A DNA stretch of 43,389 nt from Candidatus Micrarchaeia archaeon. Its GTDB lineage: Archaea > Micrarchaeota > Micrarchaeia > Anstonellales > J096. Numbering within the stretch: position 1 is the first letter of the stretch; the number at the start of each line of letters is the position of its first letter. Shown one piece after another: positions 187-25,304 of the stretch. The notes below the pieces were generated by a model. It was not told the DNA's origin. It was given only the letters and a program-made list of their open reading frames with translations, and did no database searches. The stretch spans positions 1-43,389 of the forward strand of contig JBGQMY010000008.1 of the NCBI GenBank assembly GCA_041500865.1. The letters run 5' to 3'. Made by a program: the position numbers and the translations under genes.

Positions 187-277
187 CGGAATTGCCATTG
201 ATTCTCACAACTCCAGCATATGCGATAATATCGGAGACTCAAGCACAAAAAGCGACTGCCTTCTATGGTTCAAGTGA
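2..277 (+). CDS. 3' end of a Cys-rich repeat surface protein (5' truncated by window edge)
   Basis: Open frame from position 2 (CYYDYDKIAIRDYNPDMCDKI...). Repeated C-D-x-I...D-x-C-Y motif, similar to the Cys-rich C-terminal part of 3680..4858. Confidence 0.7.
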   Translation, partial: CYYDYDKIAIRDYNPDMCDKISNLSRKDGCYYDYDKIAIRDYNNPDMCDKISNLSRKDGCYYGIAIDSHNSSICDNIGDSSTKSDCLLWFK

Positions 278-291
278 TGCTGCCTTTCCTG

Positions 292-324
292 CATGCCTCC
301 ATTGTGGGCAAAAAGGGTTAAAAA
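292..324 (-). promoter_or_regulatory. Orphan copy of the conserved 30-nt cassette head plus ATG
   Basis: TTTTTAACCCTTTTTGCCCACAATGGAGGC-ATGCAGGAAAGG, nearly identical to the head at 2185..2217 including the first four codons (MQER). Confidence 0.75.
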
Positions 325-1128
325 TCAGGATGAAACGCATTCCCTGAACTGCGCCAGGAATGAGTCTGACGCTTCTACGCCCAGCGTGTCATAAAGCAGC
401 GGCGTTACCTTGAAAAGCTGCGTAATTTCTTTGTGCCCGTTGAGTGCGGCAAAATACTTGGCTGTGTCGCCGGCGTAGTCAGCCATGGCAACCAACTCCC
501 TTGCCTTGCCGCCAGCCTTTGCATATTCATTTACCAGAAAGACGCATGTTTTTGTGTGTCCATGAATTGCGGCCTCGTGCAAGGCAGTCCTGCCCCTGCG
601 GTCCTTTGCGGCAATCAGCCTATTTACGTCGCCGCCGGATTCCGCGCATTTCCGTATTATCATGGCGCATACTTTGGTATGCGCGCAAATTGCGGCGTTG
701 TGCAGGGCCGTGTATCCGTCCCTGTCCTTTGCAGCGATATCCGCGCCGTTTTCAAGCAGCAGCTTGCAGATTTTGGCGTATCCGTTCCATGCGGCTGACA
801 TCAGCGGCGTCTTGCTGCTGCTGTTGCTCCTTATGTTTACGTCCGCGCCTTTTCCAATCAGCAGGGCGCAGGCTTGGGCATGCCCATTTGCTACAGCATA
901 CATCAGTACAGGCGCGTCGGAATCAAACATTGCGTTTAAGTCTGCGCCGACCTTGAGCAGCCGCTCAACTCTTTTTGTCCTGCCTTGGGCAGCAGCATCT
1001 ATTAGCATGTTGTCGAGCCGCACCTGCTTTTCCGGGCTGATGGCCCGTTTCTCTGTGGATAGTTTCTTCTCGGCCAGGTGTGGCTTTTGTGATTTTTTTG
1101 TCTTGGGGATTATGAGCCGCTGCGCCAT
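325..1128 (-). CDS. Ankyrin-repeat protein (Ank1) with basic N-terminus and C-terminal FRECVSS
   Basis: Several G.T(P/A)L(H/M).AA..GH ankyrin motifs. Start placed at ATG 1128, directly after the conserved head. Confidence 0.9.
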   Translation of the reverse strand: MAQRLIIPKTKKSQKPHLAEKKLSTEKRAISPEKQVRLDNMLIDAAAQGRTKRVERLLKVGADLNAMFDSDAPVLMYAVANGHAQACALLIGKGADVNIRSNSSSKTPLMSAAWNGYAKICKLLLENGADIAAKDRDGYTALHNAAICAHTKVCAMIIRKCAESGGDVNRLIAAKDRRGRTALHEAAIHGHTKTCVFLVNEYAKAGGKARELVAMADYAGDTAKYFAALNGHKEITQLFKVTPLLYDTLGVEASDSFLAQFRECVSS

Positions 1129-1158
1129 GCCTTTATTGTGCGGCAAAGGTGTTAAAAA
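1126..1158 (-). promoter_or_regulatory. Conserved cassette head (TATA-like box plus CACAAT), leaderless
   Basis: TTTTTAACACCTTTGCCGCACAATAAAGGC-ATG. Confidence 0.75.
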
Positions 1159-1704: not shown

Positions 1705-2187
1705 TCAGGCTGCAACGCATTCCCTGAAAGCTGAAAGGAACGAGCCGAAGCTTTCCTTTCCCATCCAATCCTGCAACAGCGGAATGGAATCAAGCAACTG
1801 CATGGTGTCTTGGTACCACCAGGATGCGGCAAGAAACCTGGGCGTCCTGTGTTCATTGTCCTCTGCGGCAATCAGTTCCCTTATGTCTTTGCCGGATTTT
1901 GCATATTCCTCTATTAGCAGGATGCAGTTTTCATTGTGCCCCCGTTGTGCGGCAAAGTGCAAGGCTGTATTTCCTACAACATTCTTTGAGGCGATTTCTG
2001 CGCCGGCCCTGACGAGCTGCCTTAGTTTCTCTGTGTTATTTCCGATAATAGCGGCTTGCTGGAGTCTGTTGTTGAGCGCCTCCTGTTTATCTGCGGATGA
2101 TGCCAGGGCCTCGCTCGGCATTATGTCTGCTGTCTGTTTCGGTTTCTTTGCCTGCGCATGCCTTTGGGGCGCCTTCCTTTCCTGCAT
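1705..2187 (-). CDS. Short ankyrin-repeat protein (Ank2), C-terminal FRECVAA
   Basis: GNTALHFAAQRGH ankyrin motif. Start at ATG 2187 after the conserved head; the upstream in-frame extension is antisense to real genes. Confidence 0.85.
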   Translation of the reverse strand: MQERKAPQRHAQAKKPKQTADIMPSEALASSADKQEALNNRLQQAAIIGNNTEKLRQLVRAGAEIASKNVVGNTALHFAAQRGHNENCILLIEEYAKSGKDIRELIAAEDNEHRTPRFLAASWWYQDTMQLLDSIPLLQDWMGKESFGSFLSAFRECVAA

Positions 2188-2232
2188 GCCGCCATTGTGT
2201 GCAAAAGGGGTTAAAAACAGCACAGCAGCGCC
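2185..2232 (-). promoter_or_regulatory. Conserved cassette head with 15-nt upstream extension
   Basis: GGCGCTGCTGTGCTG-TTTTTAACCCCTTTTGCACACAATGGCGGC-ATG. The extension is shared (1 mismatch) with 17961..18008. Confidence 0.75.
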
Positions 2233-4862: not shown

Positions 4863-5513
4863 TCACTTTCTTTTCTTTGCTTTTGCCTTCTTCTTAGGAG
4901 ACAGTTTGGCGGATTTCTTTGCTGCCTTTGACTTGGCGACCACCTTGCCCCTGTCATGCCTTGGCTGGAAGCTTGGCTTCGGGGCATGCGGCGCATGGGG
5001 AATGGCTGCGGCCTTTGCCGGCCTGCCGAAATACCTGTCCAAAACCCCGCTTTCAATCAGCTCCAGCGTGTTGCTGCATGACGGGCACTTGAACACCAAA
5101 TCAGCAGCGTCGTTGAACGCGAAGCTTGTGCCTATCCCGCATTGTGGGCAATAATAATGCTCCTCTTCTATGAGGTATGCGTACTTTATCCTTGCGTCCT
5201 GGTTCCTGAGCGTGTTGTTAACCCAGTCCCTGAACTTCTTCATGTCAACGGACCAGTTGTAGTAATACCAGCCTGTGTCCTCGTTCTTGGTTCTGTCATA
5301 GAAGGCTATGCCTATCTCGTTGAGCCTGTTGAGAACCGAACGCACATCGCTGACCTTTAGCCTGAGGAGGCCCGCTATCTTCTCGTCTTCCGTCTCCTTG
5401 CCTAGAAGCTTGAGGATGTCTATGGCGTTCTCCCCTGCGCAGCTTATGAGTTCCTTTCTCACGGCGTCGTTGGCCAGGAACGGGCCTATTCCCTCTGTCC
5501 TTTTGGGCATCAT
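4863..5513 (-). CDS. tfe: Transcription factor E alpha subunit with Lys/Ala-rich tail
   Basis: Winged helix (VRSVLNRLNE...GWYYYNW) plus zinc ribbon CPQC...FKCPSC. Confidence 0.9.
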   Translation of the reverse strand: MMPKRTEGIGPFLANDAVRKELISCAGENAIDILKLLGKETEDEKIAGLLRLKVSDVRSVLNRLNEIGIAFYDRTKNEDTGWYYYNWSVDMKKFRDWVNNTLRNQDARIKYAYLIEEEHYYCPQCGIGTSFAFNDAADLVFKCPSCSNTLELIESGVLDRYFGRPAKAAAIPHAPHAPKPSFQPRHDRGKVVAKSKAAKKSAKLSPKKKAKAKKRK

Positions 5514-5566: not shown

Positions 5567-6151
5567 TTATGGGCTTGCGACGCACTCGCTAAACGCCGAA
5601 AGGAACGAGCTGAACGCTGCCTTGCCTATTGATTTCTGCATGGATTCCATAAATCCTAGGAATCCGCATATTTCCTTGTATTCTGGGGGCGTGCGGCGCA
5701 TCATGGGCGCGGCTTGTTCGGCAATTGCGAGCGCGGTTTTGCCGTTTTTGTTCATCGCTCCAACGTCTGCGCCTTTTCTGACCAACAAGGCGCAGGTTTT
5801 TCTCTGCCTATGCATTGCCGCATACATAAGCGCAGTGTTGCCTGCCTTGTCAGTTTCGTCTATGATTGCCCCTTTATTTATAAGAAGCTTGCATGCGCCA
5901 ATGCGCCCGTTCGCTGCGGCAACCATAAGCACAGCAATGCCGCATTTGTTATCCATATTGATGCTTGCGCCTGCATCCAGCAGGCGGCCAATGGCCGTTA
6001 TCCAGCCGTCCTTGGCGGCTTTAAGGAGCGCTTCGTCCAGTCTTCTTCCTGCAAAAACCCTTTTTAGCGATTTTGCGGCGGACGCCAGCGCCTGCCTTGT
6101 GCGCTGCCGCAGCTTTTTCGGTTTGCTGGCTTCCTTCTGGCGCTGCTCCAT
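5567..6151 (-). CDS. Ankyrin-repeat protein (Ank3), C-terminal FSECVASP
   Basis: GNTALMYAA and GKTALAIA ankyrin motifs. ATG 6151 follows the conserved head. Confidence 0.88.
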   Translation of the reverse strand: MEQRQKEASKPKKLRQRTRQALASAAKSLKRVFAGRRLDEALLKAAKDGWITAIGRLLDAGASINMDNKCGIAVLMVAAANGRIGACKLLINKGAIIDETDKAGNTALMYAAMHRQRKTCALLVRKGADVGAMNKNGKTALAIAEQAAPMMRRTPPEYKEICGFLGFMESMQKSIGKAAFSSFLSAFSECVASP

Positions 6152-6181
6152 GCTCCTATTGTGCGGCAAAGCAATTAAAAA
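6149..6181 (-). promoter_or_regulatory. Conserved cassette head; A/T tract lies between two divergent genes
   Basis: TTTTTAATTGCTTTGCCGCACAATAGGAGC-ATG. The same TTAAAAA lies about 22 nt before ATG 6203 on the + strand. Confidence 0.7.
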
Positions 6182-7294: not shown

Positions 7295-8506
7295 TTATGC
7301 CGCAGCCTTCATCCGCGCATAGCATATCCTTCTCATTGTCTTCAGAAGGGGCGGCTCCGGGGAGCCTGGCGGCGCCCTTGAAATCCTCAGCCGGTTGGTG
7401 CCCGGCACATAGGGGCTCTCTGATGAATTTTTCAAGAATACTGTAAGCATGTCTTTGTCCGGCATGAAGCCTTCCTCTGCAAGCTTCCGCCCAACGTCAA
7501 GCCCTGCAAGATAGCGTTTTGCCGAGTATCCTGCAAGAACGGGCTTTGCCAGTATTTTTTCAATCACTTCCTTCTTGGACAGCCCGGCAAGCCGCCCCAG
7601 CCGTGTGCGTTCCCTGATGACGCGGGAATGGTCAAGGCTGGCAAATTGGGGTGACGCGAGGATTGCATGCTTCACTGCCTGTTCGTCGCCGTAGACTGCA
7701 GTCGCTTCCCTGACAACACGGGCATGGTCGTAGTTGGTGAATGAGGGGCACTTCAGGATTATTGACTTTATAGTGCCCTCATTGCCGTAGACTTTGGCCG
7801 CTTCCCTGACAACACGGGCATGGTCAAGGCCTGCGAATTGGGGATGCCTGAGGATTGCCTGCTTCACTGCCTGTTTGTCTCCGTAGACTGCAGCCGCTTC
7901 CCTGACAACGCGGGCATGGTCAAGGCTGGCGAATTTGGGCCATTTCAGGATTATTGACGTTACCTTGTCTTTGTCTCCGTATATTTCGGCAGCTTTCCTG
8001 ATGGCGCGCGCATGGTTTAGGTTGACGAATTGGGGAAACTTGAGTATTGCCTGCTTAACTGCCTGTTCATTTCCGTAGACTGCAGTCGCTTCCCTGATTA
8101 CGCGGGCATGGTCAAGACCTGCGAACTGCGGATTCTTGAGTATTGCCTGCTTAACTGCCTGTTTGTCTCCGTAGACTTTAACTGCGCCCATTACAACGCG
8201 GGCGTGGTTCAGTCCTGCGAATTTTGGCCATTTCAGGATTATTGACCTTACCTTCTTTCCGTTGCCGTAAACTGCAATTGCTTCCCTGATTACGCGGGAA
8301 TTGTCATAGCCGGCGAATTGGGGATACTTGAGTATTGCTTTCCTGGCTGCGGCCTCGCTACAGCCATAAATGCCTGCGATTTTTGCGATGAGCGCGCGAA
8401 ACTCCTCTTCTGTCTTTGTCTTGTGGTGGAAGCCGTCATGCTGGAGCAGGAATGCCGCCTCCTTTGCATTAAAGCCTACGGCCACTAGCGCCGCTGTGCT
8501 TTGCAT
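7295..8506 (-). CDS. 32-aa tandem-repeat helical protein, mTERF-like
   Basis: About 8 copies of D/N-x-x-A-V-K-Q-A-I-L-K-x-P-Q-F-A-G-L-D-H-A-R-V-V-R-E-A-x-x-V-Y-G. Confidence 0.85.
   Translation of the reverse strand: MQSTAALVAVGFNAKEAAFLLQHDGFHHKTKTEEEFRALIAKIAGIYGCSEAAARKAILKYPQFAGYDNSRVIREAIAVYGNGKKVRSIILKWPKFAGLNHARVVMGAVKVYGDKQAVKQAILKNPQFAGLDHARVIREATAVYGNEQAVKQAILKFPQFVNLNHARAIRKAAEIYGDKDKVTSIILKWPKFASLDHARVVREAAAVYGDKQAVKQAILRHPQFAGLDHARVVREAAKVYGNEGTIKSIILKCPSFTNYDHARVVREATAVYGDEQAVKHAILASPQFASLDHSRVIRERTRLGRLAGLSKKEVIEKILAKPVLAGYSAKRYLAGLDVGRKLAEEGFMPDKDMLTVFLKNSSESPYVPGTNRLRISRAPPGSPEPPLLKTMRRICYARMKAAA
7606..8362 (-). repeat. 96-bp intragenic tandem repeat array (about 8 units)
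   Basis: gcttccctga(c/t)...cgggcatggtc recurs at 96-bp spacing. Boundaries approximate. Confidence 0.9.
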
Positions 8507-8536
8507 ATTTTAATTGTGTATGGAAAGGAATAAAAA
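8504..8536 (-). promoter_or_regulatory. Variant cassette head
   Basis: TTTTTATTCCTTTCCATACACAATTAAAAT-ATG. Same 30-nt length and CACAAT at -12..-7. Confidence 0.6.
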
Positions 8537-8561: not shown

Positions 8562-10079
8562 TCAGAACGGTAAATCATCATTCAGATTGCCGACTTTCTT
8601 TGGCTCCCTTATTTCATCAACTTCCTGTTCCGTAAAATTAAACTGCTCTATTGTCAGCTTTGACAGCCCGGAATAGCATGTATTCATGCTCTGTTTGAGG
8701 AGGTGCCTTGCAGCGGCCTTCGGATTGCCGCCCATCCTTAGATACCTATAAAGAAGCCTCCTTGGCCCATAGAAATCATAATTAATCGTATTCATGTTAA
8801 GCAGCTGGACCCGCTCATCGCTGTTGTGCGGGGAGTCCCAGGGGTACGCCTCGGTTATTTCCTTTGGAGAGCCGTCTTCATTTCCGAAGAATGCGACCAT
8901 CTCGCCTGGCCTGTACGGGCTTGACTGAATCAGTTCGGCAAGATGCTGCGAAAGGTATGGGTCATCGCCTTCGGCATCCGGCGGAGATTGGAAATGGCCG
9001 TTCTGGCTGGAAACCCATGCGCCGTAGCTTATCCTTTCCAGCGCGCCTGCAAGGCCGTGCTCATGCGGGCCGACAGGAAGGCCGATATACTCCATTTTCC
9101 TGTTCATCTTCCTTATGTCGGCAAGCGAAAACCTCAATAAATCAACAAACCTATTGTTGAGCGCCTTTTTTGCCATTGTCCTGAACCTCGCAAGGCCCCT
9201 TGCCCTGTATTTTTTTGCGGCTTCCCAGATTACAAGCCTGCCTTCCTGGTATTGCTCCTCAAACGGCATGCCTTTCACGTTTTTGTTTCTGGCAAAGTCC
9301 CATAAACACCATGAGCAAAGCGCCTCAATCTCCTTGAAGCGCCTTGGCTCTGCCAGCACGTCCTGTATCAGCATATAGTCGGAACACGCGTTTTCGAATG
9401 CCTCGCTGTTTGCCATGAACGATATCTCTTCCTGGAAAAGGTGCCTGAATATTGCGTTGTTCGCGTCCTTTTCCTCTTTTGTCATGCGCCTGGGCTCAAA
9501 TGCTTCCGCGCTTGGGTTTGCGCGCGATATAAATGCGTATCCGCCCTTCCTTTCAATGTTGAATATCCTTCTCAGCACAGGGCCTAGGTTGGCTGCAAGG
9601 ATGTCCTTGAACGCCCTTACCCTTTTCTCGTGCTCGTGTTTCTGGATTTGCCTTTGTTTTTTGGACGGCTTGCTTTCAGTCATGAACATGCGGTTGAACA
9701 CGTCGTTTATGTGGTACGAAAACTGGCTGATGAGGCAGTGCTCGTAAAGGAACTCCCTGTCCATCCTTCCGACAAAATGCAGGGCCTTTGCAAGCGCGTA
9801 TGCAGGCATCTTCTGCGGATAAAACCTTATCTCTTTTCCATCTTTTCCATTTGAGATGAACCTCGGCTCGCCTGCCCAATGCCTGTTGTTGTCCATCTCG
9901 TGCTCAAGCATTGACAAGCAGGCCTGGTGCGCCTTCTCGTTGCCAATCTCCCTTGAGATTTCGACGCATTTCTTTAGCTTATCCAGCTTCTCCAGTTTCC
10001 TTATCTGCCATGAGCCGCCGTGCCTTTCGAGCACGCGTTCAGCAAATGAAGGGCGGATGGCCTGGGCTGTTTCTGGCAT
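8562..10079 (-). CDS. Hypothetical protein with a sigma-70 region-2-like segment
   Basis: EEQYQEGRLVIWEAAKKY...RFRTMAKKALNNRFVDLLR matches the region-2 pattern. Start at ATG 10079 (alternative TTG 10109). Confidence 0.6.
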   Translation of the reverse strand: MPETAQAIRPSFAERVLERHGGSWQIRKLEKLDKLKKCVEISREIGNEKAHQACLSMLEHEMDNNRHWAGEPRFISNGKDGKEIRFYPQKMPAYALAKALHFVGRMDREFLYEHCLISQFSYHINDVFNRMFMTESKPSKKQRQIQKHEHEKRVRAFKDILAANLGPVLRRIFNIERKGGYAFISRANPSAEAFEPRRMTKEEKDANNAIFRHLFQEEISFMANSEAFENACSDYMLIQDVLAEPRRFKEIEALCSWCLWDFARNKNVKGMPFEEQYQEGRLVIWEAAKKYRARGLARFRTMAKKALNNRFVDLLRFSLADIRKMNRKMEYIGLPVGPHEHGLAGALERISYGAWVSSQNGHFQSPPDAEGDDPYLSQHLAELIQSSPYRPGEMVAFFGNEDGSPKEITEAYPWDSPHNSDERVQLLNMNTINYDFYGPRRLLYRYLRMGGNPKAAARHLLKQSMNTCYSGLSKLTIEQFNFTEQEVDEIREPKKVGNLNDDLPF

Positions 10080-10121
10080 TTTAATTACACTTTTGGTGAT
10101 TAAAGGCAACAGTTTAAAAGA

Positions 10122-17315: not shown

Positions 17316-17963
17316 CTATTTTTTTTTCACGAATTGCGTCTTTGTTTCGTTGAGCTGGTATCCTTCGGCAGGCAAAAACCGGAATTTCAAATGGTATTTG
17401 CTGGCAAGAGTTTCAAAGGACGCATGCATTGCGCCTATGATTTTGTATCCTTTGCGGTATTCGTCAATGTCTTTTGCAAGATTTAACCCAAGAATGCCCG
17501 GTTTCGGGGTTTTGTCTGTCTTCATGATGACAGTATATCCCCTGACTTTTCCGGTCTCCGGCTCCCTGACTGCGATTGCCGCCGCACGTTCGTTTTTCGC
17601 CTCCAAAAACAATTCCATGTCTTTTGGGGACGGAAGCGCGCCATAAGATATTTCTTTGCGTTCCTTGTATTTTGACTCTGGATGGAATAGACCTGGGAAC
17701 ATGGTGTCCAAAGCCGAGCGCCTTTCCTTCGGCAAGGAGGAGAGGTGAGTATGGACGCGCATGCGCTGCTCTTTGGAACCAACCGGAACCTGGATTGACT
17801 GCCTATCGGTGCTTGAATCAATGGTGATGTCTTCCAGCTCTTTACCGCGGAACTTGACGAATGCGTGCTCTAGGTCAGGGTTGGAAGCGGATTCTATTAT
17901 TTCAGTCGGGCTTTTCTTCTTTGCTGCCTTGCCTGCCTTGGATTGCCCACTCGCCTGCTCCAT
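17316..17963 (-). CDS. Hypothetical protein with a JAB/MPN-like metal motif and basic N-terminus
   Basis: E...VHTH...ALPSPKD. ATG 17963 follows the conserved head. Confidence 0.65.
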   Translation of the reverse strand: MEQASGQSKAGKAAKKKSPTEIIESASNPDLEHAFVKFRGKELEDITIDSSTDRQSIQVPVGSKEQRMRVHTHLSSLPKERRSALDTMFPGLFHPESKYKERKEISYGALPSPKDMELFLEAKNERAAAIAVREPETGKVRGYTVIMKTDKTPKPGILGLNLAKDIDEYRKGYKIIGAMHASFETLASKYHLKFRFLPAEGYQLNETKTQFVKKK

Positions 17964-18008
17964 GCCCTTATTGTGCGCAAAAGGGGTTAAAAACAGCTCA
18001 GCAGCGCC
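17961..18008 (-). promoter_or_regulatory. Conserved cassette head with extension
   Basis: GGCGCTGCTGAGCTG-TTTTTAACCCCTTTTGCGCACAATAAGGGC-ATG. Confidence 0.75.
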
Positions 18009-23945: not shown

Positions 23946-25304
23946 ATGCCGACTTCCAACGAAATCATGGACAAGATAAACGCAAACGGGATAAAATGGC
24001 TGAATTTGCAGTTCATTGACATTTTTGGCTCAATAAGGGAGGTCTCGATAAACAGGGAGCTCATTTCAGCCAATGACATCGACAAGGGAATGGAGACTGA
24101 CACCATAGGCAACGTCTTCAACGACGACTACTACGAGAAGCTGATATTGGTTCCGGACTTGGACACTTACGTTGACATGGGCGACAGGAATGCACGGCTA
24201 ATCTGCAGGATACAGAAAACCGACAACACCAGGCACCTCAAGGACCCGATTTACGCCGCCGACAGGCTCAAGATGAACGCAGAGGCGCTCGGCATAAGCC
24301 AGTTCAGCATCAAGCAGAGGGTTGAGTTCTACGTATTTGACAGGTACGGCGTAGACCGGACGTACAAGGAAGGCGGCTCGGCAGTCACGCTCGGAAGCAA
24401 GGAAAGCAAGTGGACGCCCAACGCCCCGATACTCGAGAACATGAACAGCGCATCATTCCCGAACGACCTTTACAACGGCATAAGGCAGCAGATATGCCAA
24501 GTATACTCACAATTCGGCTATGCCGTTGAAAGGCACATGCACGGCAAGAACAGCAGCTCGCACCAGGCCATGTCCATAAAGGACAGCGACTTCATCACCT
24601 CGGCGTACGCATTCACGTCGTTCAAGCAGGTGGCAAGGACAGTGGGCTTCCTGAACGGGGTTAACGCCACGTTCATGCCCATGCCGATACCCTCGGAAAA
24701 GGGCAGCGGCCTTGAGCTTGAGATAGCGGCAAAGGGCGAGAAGGACGAAAACTTGTTCTACGACAAGAAGGCCGGGCTGAGCGACAACGCAAGGTACTTC
24801 ATTGGGGGCATACTGGAGCACATGAAGGCCATAATGCTCTTCACCAATCCGACCACGAACTCATACAAGAGGTTCTACGAGGACCCCAAATACATATCCT
24901 GGGGCAATGCGGACAAGTCCAACGCGATATTCGTCGACACGTCAGCCAAGGACATGAGGATAGTCGCGACGTTCCCTGACCCGATGCTCAACCCGTTCAT
25001 CGCCTATTCTGTCATAGTGGCGGCAGGGCTTGACGGCGTGAAGAAGAAGACCGAGCCAAAGATGGAAATGCTGACTGAAAGGCCTTCCGCATTGGGCTCA
25101 AAGGAAAGGCAGAAGCTCAAGGTCGAGGAGTTCCCAAGGGAGCTGATGACGACGATAGAGGCCATGGAGAACGACGTTGAGTTCGTCAAGGGGGTCATAA
25201 CGCCTGAGCTGCTTGTCGATTACCTTGAGCAGAAGATAAAGGAGCAGAGGATGGGAAGCATGATACCGAACTCCTACGAGTTTGACCAGTACTTCCATCT
25301 TTGA
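23946..25304 (+). CDS. Glutamine synthetase type I homologue with degenerate active site
   Basis: LQFIDIFG, PDLDT, ATFMPMP, FIGGILEH, NPTTNSYKR, PD...NP..A, AAGLDG give the GS fold; catalytic residues are substituted. Confidence 0.85.
   Translation: MPTSNEIMDKINANGIKWLNLQFIDIFGSIREVSINRELISANDIDKGMETDTIGNVFNDDYYEKLILVPDLDTYVDMGDRNARLICRIQKTDNTRHLKDPIYAADRLKMNAEALGISQFSIKQRVEFYVFDRYGVDRTYKEGGSAVTLGSKESKWTPNAPILENMNSASFPNDLYNGIRQQICQVYSQFGYAVERHMHGKNSSSHQAMSIKDSDFITSAYAFTSFKQVARTVGFLNGVNATFMPMPIPSEKGSGLELEIAAKGEKDENLFYDKKAGLSDNARYFIGGILEHMKAIMLFTNPTTNSYKRFYEDPKYISWGNADKSNAIFVDTSAKDMRIVATFPDPMLNPFIAYSVIVAAGLDGVKKKTEPKMEMLTERPSALGSKERQKLKVEEFPRELMTTIEAMENDVEFVKGVITPELLVDYLEQKIKEQRMGSMIPNSYEFDQYFHL

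Follow-up and report, generated by a model that had tools for sequence, protein, structure and literature searches.

Background

Genes for bacterial-type sigma-70 factors in DPANN archaea were reported by Castelle et al. in 2021 (fam00359, PMC8204110). These homologues sit on DPANN chromosomes that also encode TBP, TFB and TFE and are accompanied by no anti-sigma factor, a setting shared by the gene described here. Among bacterial proteins, the nearest comparison is domain 2 of ECF and group 3–4 sigma factors (for example SigB 8x6g_H, SigW 5wuq_A, SigK 4nqw_A and CnrH 4cxf_A). On the promoter side, an A/T-rich element near −10 and a pyrimidine at −1 have been described for Thermococcus and other archaea (PMC5316973).

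The gene in question lies in a 43,389-nucleotide stretch (contig JBGQMY010000008.1, hereafter the window) from a Candidatus Micrarchaeia archaeon, a tiny, symbiotic-type DPANN organism with a large ankyrin arsenal. An earlier note on this DNA had recognised a sigma-70 region-2-like segment in its product, P0001, and a −10-like CACAAT box at the heads of six genes, and had proposed that the one reads or melts the other, or else that the protein acts on the RNA polymerase of a partner cell.

Compared with the described systems, the P0001 family differs in architecture. The DPANN sigma factors inspected are full sigma factors, whereas the P0001 family aligns with them over region 2 only, carries an N-terminal domain and C-terminal motifs of its own, and is present in 1 of 401 genomes of the phylum, against 50 of 401 for PF04542 (46 of them over the cut-off). 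Among the best 12 of these PF04542-bearing genes, region 2 was found in all 12, region 4 in ten and region 3 in seven. Unlike the bacterial ECF and group 3–4 proteins, P0001 has no detected sigma-4 partner domain and its host has no bacterial core polymerase; its length is approximately 2.5 times that of an ECF sigma. The sigma-2-only family is a new architectural variant, sigma genes as such having been known in DPANN archaea since 2021 (PMC8204110). Literature searches on sigma factors of DPANN archaea and on archaeal sigma-70 region 2 turned up no description of it; the supplement of PMC8204110 may list it, and it may be part of fam00359.

The gene, its product and their surroundings

Features of the locus are collected in Table 1. 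The P0001 start codon was placed at the ATG at 10079, an alternative in-frame TTG at 10109 giving a product of 515 aa. Most family relatives begin near P0001 residue 72, and, in the 23 alignment rows inspected out of 46, P0001 and P0043 alone have residues at 1–71; the close ortholog P0003 matches P0001 over residues 1–505, N-terminal extension included. The extension also faintly resembles (E 0.003) a 140-aa ORF on C5 of the source genome. The AlphaFold model of P0001 is confident over the core. For the family-conserved domain (residues 72–232), Foldseek returned no match to the model (best E 1.0) and the ESM Atlas no usable one.

Table 1. Positions in the window of the sigma-2-domain gene, its parts and the CACAAT-bearing gene heads
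Feature	Position	Strand	Basis or description
Gene for sigma-2-domain protein P0001	8562..10079 (incl. stop codon)	−	ORF and translation, 505 aa
N-terminal extension, residues 1–71	9867..10079	−	helical hairpin (structure model)
Family-conserved N-terminal helical domain, residues 72–232	9384..9866	−	
Sigma-70 region-2-like domain, residues about 230–321	9117..9392	−	contains the peptide singled out in the earlier note
C-terminal part, residues 322–505	8565..9116	−	predicted linker, beta hairpin, four short helices and tip ...NDDLPF
Downstream gene P0002, 403-aa mTERF-repeat protein	7295..8506	−	Pfam mTERF E 7.7e-7, 28.8 bits, cut-off 23.1
Promoter head of downstream gene P0002	8504..8536	−	TTTTTAT 8536–8530, CACAAT 8518–8513, ATG 8506–8504
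Cassette head of ankyrin gene 5567–6151	6149..6181	−	TATA box, CACAAT, ATG; Pfam Ank_2 E 1.5e-16
Cassette head of ankyrin gene 1705–2187	2185..2217	−	Pfam Ank_2 E 7.8e-10
Cassette head of ankyrin gene 325–1128	1126..1158	−	Pfam Ank_2 E 1.4e-32
Cassette head before 29-aa relic ORF (205–294)	292..324	−	
Cassette head of 215-aa gene 17316–17963	17961..17993	−	gene with no Pfam match; spacer resembles that of the ankyrin family
Seventh copy	24508–24522	+	no TATA box; heads 19-aa ORF

The contig is genuinely of DPANN origin, as archaeal neighbours and machinery are present. The host genome carries TFB, and a PF04997 search detected a single Rpb1-type gene (845-codon open frame, archaeal Rpo1N type) and no bacterial-type core RNA polymerase. 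The coiled-coil of this Rpo1N clamp spans about residues 203–252, and a gene for TFE-alpha is situated in the window at 4863–5513.

A divergent sigma-70 region 2

Residues about 230–321 of P0001 can be solidly assigned as a divergent, ECF-like sigma-70 region-2 domain, an assignment made by family-level and fold evidence. P0001 alone reaches neither of the curated scores: Pfam Sigma70_r2 (PF04542) aligned with residues 261–316 (E 0.0034, 17.6 bits, gathering score 24) and with the DNA frame of the gene at 21.9 bits, also under 24, and NCBIfam TIGR02937 (sigma70-ECF) matched residues 253–325 below its cut-off of 42.9 (E 4.5e-6, 26.4 bits). Across the family, PF04542 was matched at E ≤ 0.01 by 18 of the 46 members, with a best value of 1.1e-8. 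Alignment of the family with 12 DPANN sigma factors in hhalign gave 88.9%, and the sigma-2 segment alone gave 95.6% (E 1.2e-8, 84 columns). When the whole model was submitted to Foldseek, all 50 listed rows were chains of bacterial RNAP holoenzymes or initiation complexes, albeit as weak matches (best E 0.014, TM about 0.15). Against PDB sequences, phmmer with P0001 found nothing, and the best hit of the family profile (FliA, E 0.067) stood level with ribosomal protein L29. Regions 2.1–2.4 are nevertheless recognisable by profile and fold in the P0001 family. The earlier note had fitted residues 260–315 (bases 9135–9302) to the region 2 pattern and suggested a profile or structural search, and here Pfam, TIGR02937, the family-level matches, hhalign and the fold evidence all agree with it.

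The family is rare, with 45 representatives among 1.84 billion. Organism labels were available for 5 of 20 clusters looked up and all five were archaeal, the labels of relatives being Woesearchaeota, Aenigmarchaeota and Nanoarchaeota. Conservation is highest in region 2.2 (Q278-E279-G280, W285) and in the loop after it (Y291, R-N-F-A-R-F299); Q278 is invariant, and conservation reaches 90% or more at E279, W285, Y291, F299, L307, R323 and W355. An ortholog in a second locus (L015) is 79% identical, with a dN/dS of 0.23 for the whole gene and 0.17 within the sigma-2 domain, and the gene is under purifying selection.

These data bear on whether the gene could be a decaying, functionless remnant of a transferred sigma gene, as might be read from its scores below the curated cut-offs, its loss of regions 3 and 4 and its sporadic occurrence in a single genome out of 401. 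We regard such decay as highly improbable, given the intact reading frame, the low dN/dS against the 79%-identical ortholog and the 40 relatives at E ≤ 1e-10 that have invariant residues in common; the confidently predicted core of the AlphaFold model would likewise be at odds with it.

In a viral collection, one weak relative was detected (30% over residues 268–340, in a 92-aa ORF). A viral origin of the family was considered and is not supported, family members being found in chromosomal contexts.

Sigma-factor parts not found by sequence

The earlier statement that no clear region 4 is visible stands: at E ≤ 10, Pfam gave no match in the last 130 residues (376–505) of P0001 or of two close relatives. 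Comparison of the C-terminal parts with DPANN sigma factors by hhalign gave 0.04% and 0.14%, with no region 4, and just one of the 46 family members had a weak match to Sigma70_r4_2 (E 0.0069). Whole-model alignments to 9n9q_C and to sigma-28 (6pmj_F) extend to residues 502–504, at rmsd 14–30, and on this modelling a region-4-like fold in the C-terminus may be present. Two short motifs recur in the family: 16–18 of the 46 members end in a C-terminal acidic-hydrophobic-Pro-Phe tip (18 when counted as [LIVTMC]-P-[FIL]), and 22 have an NFPHLNE-like motif.

Family columns 302–306, which we take to correspond to the region 2.3 residues by which sigma-70 captures the bases of the melted −10 element, contain no conserved aromatic pair; they read M/F/L, A/V, K/R, K/T/V and A/S, and in the hhalign alignment a four-residue gap faces the 'ya..wi' segment of the consensus for sigma factors. 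ECF sigmas likewise lack the Trp pair.

Neighbouring genes and possible partners

Immediately downstream, P0002 encodes the mTERF-repeat protein. Both genes are missing from the syntenic locus of two genomes of the same genus (G001 and G002), which indicates a two-gene insert; the locus is assembled in both, and the sigma-like gene was found neither there nor by protein query in these genomes, which are 77% (G001) and 86% (G002) complete and may therefore have a copy elsewhere. The mTERF domain was detected in one of six genomes searched, that is, in none of the five other than the source, and the three other family-holding genomes yielded no match to it. Genes around family members are chromosomal housekeeping genes. 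Neighbours are not conserved across the family, and no conserved partner gene (anti-sigma factor or mTERF) stands beside the family members at two further loci (L005 and L007).

Several of these observations would fit a sigma-2 fold re-used away from RNA polymerase, as a nucleic-acid-binding regulator or a scaffold that docks by its C-terminal tip, perhaps with the mTERF-repeat protein. Regions 3 and 4 were not found, the N-terminal domain is large and conserved, the tip and the NFPHLNE-like motif recur in the family, and the gene shared its gain or loss with the mTERF-like gene. However, conservation peaks precisely at region 2.2, the polymerase-binding face in sigma factors, the mTERF gene is not found in the three other family-holding genomes, and neighbouring genes vary across the family. 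On balance, such a role is doubtful, though it deserves serious consideration.

The same conserved face of region 2.2 would fit a bacterial beta-prime clamp, and the organism is of a symbiotic type with many ankyrin proteins, so that an effector or decoy, exported or aimed at the bacterial-type RNA polymerase of another cell, could be envisaged, as it was in the earlier note. We give this very little credence. The structure model carries no sign of export, the N-terminus being predicted as a helical hairpin, and the gene sits among housekeeping genes. To our knowledge, the hosts of such archaea are other archaea, which also counts against a target of bacterial type.

The CACAAT box as a promoter element

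The pattern CACAATNNNNNNATG (CACAAT-N6-ATG) occurs seven times in the window against 0.45 expected, a number reached in none of 100 shuffles, although the bare CACAAT hexamer is not enriched (20 found, 23 expected). Six of the copies lie on the minus strand after a TTTTTAA or TTTTTAT box, each heading an ORF, which bears out the earlier count of six cassette heads with CACAAT at −12..−7, that of the downstream gene included (8504–8518). The seventh copy looks like a chance occurrence. No CACAAT is present upstream of the sigma-like gene itself. The ortholog locus L015 retains CACAAT with a 7-base spacer.

Across the genome, a TATA box was located at −30..−24 from the ATG in 339 genes; the CACAAT box, where present, lies 12 bases downstream of it. 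TATA box and ATG are most often 28–31 bases apart (56, 135, 176 and 79 cases, respectively, with at most 29 at any other distance). From this spacing we infer that the genome is mostly leaderless; the start sites and the −12..−7 numbering are derived from it as well. Of the 339 promoters, 86 stand before members of a single ankyrin-like family (at least 86 genes), with CACAAT (25 times) and CATAAT (10 times) among their hexamers. The promoters of this paralogous family are mutually homologous, and most box copies belong to it.

The 253 promoters that do not belong to this family show the profile less sharply, reading C-A-A-A-A-T at −12..−7 (C.39, A.53, A.57, A.44, A.49, T.35), and 81% of them have C or T at −1. 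CACAAT is also the commonest hexamer of this set, found in 6 of 253 as opposed to about 0.6 expected from column frequencies; a small true regulon with some specific reader of CACAAT may therefore exist.

With the start position inferred as above, the box has an A-rich −11..−8, C or T at −1 and a place downstream of a TATA box, as expected of an archaeal promoter-proximal element. It resembles the elements of Thermococcus, Pyrococcus and Saccharolobus, as given in PMC5316973, in position relative to the TATA box, A-richness, pyrimidine at −1 with purine at +1, and leaderless genes. It differs from them in its sharpness, CA(C/T)AAT being the dominant hexamer as a result of the homologous promoters shared by a gene family with at least 86 members. 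With the bacterial −10 element TATAAT it shares a nominal −12..−7 position and four of six bases, including A at −11 and T at −7; unlike bacterial promoters, these have a TATA box at −30..−24 upstream instead of a −35 element. Nor does its presence appear to depend, as that of a bacterial −10 element would, on a sigma factor in the genome, for it also occurs in relatives in which no sigma-like gene was found. Collectively, CACAAT looks like a pronounced, family-specific version of the usual archaeal promoter-proximal element that has been spread by expansion of the ankyrin family, and its reader is most probably the regular TBP/TFB/RNAP machinery.

The alternative put forward in the earlier note was that P0001 acts like a sigma factor on promoters of its own genome, region 2 reading or melting CACAAT at −12..−7 and so defining an ankyrin regulon. 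The sigma-2 fold is real, the box occupies −12..−7 relative to the inferred start, its A and T falling on −11 and −7, it heads the gene immediately downstream, and it is over-represented outside the ankyrin family. In addition, CACAAT-type promoters number 32 in the source genome (G000) against 10 in G002 and 5 in G001, its relatives from the same genus. Yet these two relatives keep the box with no sigma-like gene at the syntenic locus (several of their copies share the same spacer sequence), and three genomes with family members have no such promoter at all, although their proteins are 27–37% identical and could read a different sequence. The co-occurrence of gene and motif proposed as a check was accordingly not observed, and a tie between box and gene is not supported. 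None of these promoters lacks a normal TATA box, and TFB is encoded by the host; region 4 was not found by sequence, and the upstream region of the gene itself is free of CACAAT. Given the normal promoter-proximal position behind a TATA box, retention of the box without the gene and family columns 302–306 without an aromatic pair, region 2 is very unlikely to be the reader or melter of CACAAT.

A reduced sigma-2 family and its possible role

With slightly better than even confidence, we favour a reduced, sigma-2-only DPANN family that docks protein to protein through region 2.2, the box being a separate and ordinary promoter element. The family would have its ancestors among the sigma-70 genes of bacterial type that DPANN archaea are known to carry, keeping the sigma-2 domain, losing regions 3 and 4 (as judged by sequence) and gaining the conserved helical domain at the N-terminus as well as, in 18 of 46 members, the acidic-hydrophobic-Pro-Phe tip. 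Its entry into this lineage would have been as a two-gene insert with the mTERF-repeat gene, and purifying selection would have kept it there.

Region 2.2 in sigma factors is the face gripping the clamp coiled-coil of RNA polymerase, and archaeal Rpo1N has a homologous coiled-coil; protein–protein docking through that face is therefore most likely. By analogy, the archaeal RNA polymerase clamp would be the foremost candidate for the docking partner, a proposal we make tentatively and put well short of an even chance. Docked on the clamp, the protein might modulate initiation alongside TBP, TFB and TFE, not replacing them. A more elaborate scheme, which we consider unlikely, would make the domesticated sigma-2 domain an accessory factor of the Pol II-like archaeal polymerase, seated on the Rpo1N coiled-coil at the binding site of TFE and Spt5, while the extra domains and the tip recruit or exclude factors and, maybe with the mTERF-repeat protein, tune the CA(C/T)AAT promoters of the ankyrin genes.

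Two cautions follow for the reading of such loci. A −10-like box at −12..−7 in a leaderless archaeon is the normal look of an archaeal promoter, and a regulon can be mimicked by the expansion of a gene family.

Since the reports of 2021, the question has been why archaea that initiate with TBP and TFB keep bacterial sigma genes. The P0001 family offers a useful reduced case, in which the polymerase-gripping domain alone survives, with the grip face most conserved and under selection. If the more elaborate scheme proved true, parts of bacterial and archaeal initiation machinery would be functioning together as a hybrid.

Sigma-70 region 2 homology of P0001

An earlier note had read a sigma-70 region 2 pattern in a peptide corresponding to residues 260–315 of the sigma-like protein of the window (P0001). 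Pfam Sigma70_r2 aligned to residues 261–316 over profile positions 11–66 of 71 (E 0.0034, 17.6 bits, below the gathering score of 24), and NCBIfam TIGR02937 (sigma70-ECF) to residues 253–325 (E 4.5e-6, 26.4 bits, below the cut-off of 42.9). A scan of the complete genome (1.04 Mb) gave no other Sigma70_r2 match; on the DNA frame the gene scored 21.9 bits. When every member of the 46-sequence family formed by P0001 and its relatives was scanned against Pfam, 18 matched Sigma70_r2 at E ≤ 0.01, the best at 1.1e-8. Twelve genuine sigma genes taken from genomes of the same phylum served as a comparison set (region 2 in 12, region 4 in 10 and region 3 in seven). Profile-profile comparison with these 12 DPANN sigma factors gave 88.9% for the family profile (E 2.4e-6, 78 columns) and 95.6% for the sigma-2 segment alone (E 1.2e-8, 84 columns). 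A phmmer search of PDB sequences returned no match to P0001, and the best hit of the family profile there (FliA, E 0.067) was level with ribosomal L29 rows.

The AlphaFold2 model of P0001 had a mean pLDDT of 77.7, with residues ~90–320 mostly above 90. A Foldseek-independent search of 48,161 PDB chains placed sigma-factor or initiation-complex chains in rows 1–21, all across model residues ~226–332, with values of 10.5 (2.7; 89) for SigB, 9.6 for RpoS regions 1.2–2, 9.1 for pro-sigma-K, 8.8 for SigW, 8.5 for M. tuberculosis SigA domain 2 and 7.4 for Taq sigma-A domain 2 bound to −10 DNA. Foldseek itself was weak (best E 0.014, TM ~0.15), yet all 50 of the 50 rows listed were bacterial RNAP holoenzyme or initiation-complex chains. 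We therefore consider sigma-2 homology well supported and hold it with high confidence, although P0001 taken alone scores below both curated thresholds; the pattern seen in the earlier note was borne out by both profiles, the family scan, profile-profile comparison and the fold search.

Positions of the features discussed (window coordinates unless another contig is named)
Feature	Position	Strand	Remarks
Sigma-like gene (P0001)	8562–10079	-	ORF from ATG 10079, 505 aa; in-frame TTG at 10109 as alternative start, 515 aa
P0001 C-terminal tip	8565–8579	-	Protein ends in NDDLPF
mTERF-like gene (P0002)	7295–8506	-	403 aa; built of mTERF-like repeats of ~33 residues; exceeds the Pfam mTERF cut-off (E 7.7e-7)
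TFE-alpha gene	4863–5513	-	Pfam TFIIE_alpha E 8.1e-14; 3 kb from sigma-like gene
Ankyrin-family heads	292–324, 1126–1158, 2185–2217, 6149–6181	-	Shared promoter
Putative relic or truncated ankyrin cassette	205–294	-	Full cassette promoter, then 29 codons only (MQERQ...)
TFB gene (L019, L020)	C15:22176–22718	-	Within 454-codon open frame
140-aa ORF (L003)	C5:41717–42136	-	CACAAA promoter

Family conservation and the remainder of the protein

A word-indexed search retrieved a single relative of P0001 (P0003, 79% identity), and an HMMER search run exhaustively over 1.84 billion representatives retrieved 45 proteins (E ≤ 1e-3), of which 40 had E ≤ 1e-10 and 11 had E ≤ 1e-30. Most of the proteins were 340–450 aa long and had query residues ~72–390 in common. 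The region 2.2 signature was the most conserved part of the sigma-2 fold. Across the 46 aligned sequences Q278 was invariant, E279, W285, Y291, F299, L307, R323 and W355 were at least 90% conserved, and the consensus read D.E.Q.QEGLL..W.AA..YE.RNFARF.T.A..AL.NKF.NLLRY..ADKRR.NR. Columns 302–306, which we take to correspond to the sigma-70 melting residues, held M/F/L, A/V, K/R, K/T/V and A/S; no conserved aromatic pair was present, and hhalign opened a 4-residue gap facing the 'ya..wi' stretch of the sigma consensus. The Trp pair is also missing from ECF sigmas.

Judged by sequence, regions 3 and 4 appear to have been lost. The last 130 residues of P0001 had no Pfam match at E ≤ 10 (the same held for both close relatives) and the C-terminal parts reached 0.04% and 0.14% against DPANN sigma factors in hhalign; region 4 was thus not found at this level, in agreement with the earlier note, which had seen no clear region-4 helix-turn-helix. 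One of the 46 members matched Sigma70_r4_2 weakly (E 0.0069), and two whole-model structure rows (a sigma-28 chain and 9n9q_C) extended to residues 502–504 with very high rmsd.

The C-terminus ended in [LIVTMC]-P-[FIL] in 18 of 46 members, preceded by an acidic residue in 16; the tip occurred in P0010, P0012, P0013, P0017, P0021, P0024, P0036, P0039–P0044 and others. Two members ended in DDDIPF, a sequence that may resemble the tip of bacterial SSB at its C-terminus. An NFPHLNE-like motif was present in 22 of 46 members. A 140-aa ORF elsewhere in the genome showed weak likeness to P0001 residues 18–64 (E 0.003), and the two may share a helical-hairpin module.

Distribution, host machinery and selection

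Across the phylum of the window (401 genomes), the family profile matched a single genome, that of the window itself. Pfam Sigma70_r2 matched 50 of the 401 (46 above cut-off) and, leaving the window's genome aside, 0 of 16 in the organism's own family. Five of the 20 clusters looked up carried an organism label, namely Woesearchaeota (twice), Aenigmarchaeota, Nanoarchaeota and 'archaeon'. Three family loci were found in species-representative genomes (two Woesearchaeota MAGs and one labelled Methanosarcinales), where the neighbours were housekeeping genes and not conserved (among them ribonucleotide reductase, diphthamide synthesis, ProRS, GAPDH, UPP synthase, NUDIX, Ogg, thioredoxin and a MarR-type regulator). 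Complete sigma factors with regions 2, 3 and 4 were seen at loci L021–L032, in other genomes of the phylum; several are extended at the N-terminus, their open frames reaching 793 codons, and some are on short contigs that may be mis-binned. Castelle et al. 2021 (PMC8204110) describe sigma-70 genes (fam00359) in DPANN archaea, especially Woesearchaeota, with no anti-sigma factors and a mechanism called unclear; the distribution seen here fits that account.

The genome encodes TFB, one archaeal Rpo1N and, inside the window, TFE-alpha. A typical TFB is shorter than the open frame containing the TFB gene. Comparison of P0001 with its 79% ortholog on metagenome contig L015 gave a dN/dS of 0.23 over the full length and of 0.17 within the sigma-2 domain, showing that purifying selection acts on the gene.

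The CACAAT box and archaeal promoters

The motif CACAATNNNNNNATG occurred seven times in the window (0.45 expected; seven reached by 0 of 100 shuffles), whereas the bare CACAAT hexamer was not enriched (20 found vs 23 expected). Six copies, all minus-strand, were preceded by TTTTTAA or TTTTTAT and each headed an ORF, confirming the six cassette heads with CACAAT at −12..−7; the seventh, lacking such a box and heading 19 codons, looks like chance.

Genome-wide, the distance from TATA-like heptamer to ATG (ATGs opening at least 80 codons) peaked sharply at 28–31 bases (56, 135, 176 and 79 cases), with at most 29 cases at each other distance from 12 to 79, so that most genes probably lack a leader and have their TATA box at −30..−24 from the A of ATG. 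In the 339 such promoters A predominated at −11..−8, flanked by C at −12 and T at −7, and position −1 was C or T. All-against-all BLAST assigned 86 of them to one family, of which all four members scanned matched Pfam ankyrin repeats (Ank_2 E 7.8e-10 to 1.4e-32); its −12..−7 hexamer was CACAAT in 25 cases, CATAAT in 10 and otherwise a near variant, usually preceded by the common spacer CCTTTGCCG. These ankyrin-repeat paralogs number at least 86, nearly all leaderless by TATA spacing, and have the promoter TTTTTAA-C.CCTTTGCCG-CA(C/T)AAT-N6-ATG in common. Their N-termini are of the MQERK, MAQR or MEQR type, and the motif F..F.EC(V/I) is frequent at the C-terminus.

The 253 promoters outside this family had C.39, A.53, A.57, A.44, A.49 and T.35 at −12..−7. 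CACAAT was still their commonest hexamer (6 of 253 vs ~0.6 expected from column frequencies), heading genes for mTERF-like, methyltransferase-like and radical-SAM proteins and three without a Pfam match. Family-like spacers were present in two of the six, and a small excess beyond paralogy is thus real. The box had been likened to the bacterial −10 element; its resemblance is best read instead as an ordinary archaeal promoter-proximal element, apparently amplified by ankyrin family expansion.

Gene and box do not track each other

The earlier note guessed that P0001 reads or melts CACAAT. Counting TTTWWA-N12-CACAAT-N6-ATG per genome (reversed-pattern control 0 in every genome) gave 32 matches in the window's genome, and 10 and 5 in two same-genus genomes, G002 (86% complete) and G001 (77% complete), neither of which matched the P0001 query; the family profile also found nothing in G002. 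Another 28 relatives without a match to P0001 had 0–3 each, and G406, G407 and G408, which carry family genes 27–37% identical, had 0 each. CACAAT was not found upstream of the P0001 gene itself. The guess was thus not borne out: by the note's own reckoning, in which a motif common in genomes lacking the gene unlinks the two, they appear unlinked, with the caveats that G001 and G002 are incomplete and distant members could read another sequence.

At the syntenic locus of G001 and G002, PadR, PyrK-like, membrane protein and TFE genes were contiguous and the sigma-like and mTERF-like genes both absent, while gene order on L015 equalled that of the window. These loci indicate a two-gene insert specific to the lineage of the window's genome and L015, and a genus-wide box. 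The mTERF-like gene was gained or lost jointly with the sigma-like gene, and Pfam mTERF matched one of six genomes searched, that of the window (the others being G001, G002 and G406–G408). Archaeal TFE binds the same polymerase clamp as sigma region 2 in bacteria; the proximity of the TFE-alpha gene to the sigma-like gene is probably coincidental, because TFE-alpha is syntenic in G001, G002 and L015.

Possible function and novelty

Sigma factors grip the beta-prime clamp coiled-coil through region 2.2, and we infer that Rpo1N carries a homologous coiled-coil. Our best guess is therefore that P0001 binds the clamp of the archaeal polymerase and in this way influences initiation, a tentative proposal that may well prove wrong. 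Ranked next, and rather unlikely, is a regulator or scaffold independent of the polymerase.

DPANN sigma genes are already in print (PMC8204110). The literature searched on sigma factors in DPANN and on Sigma70_r2 in archaea gave no description of this sigma-2-only family. Its architecture is a new variant, in which sigma-2, the sole sigma domain, is combined with C-terminal motifs and an N-terminal domain that is itself new.
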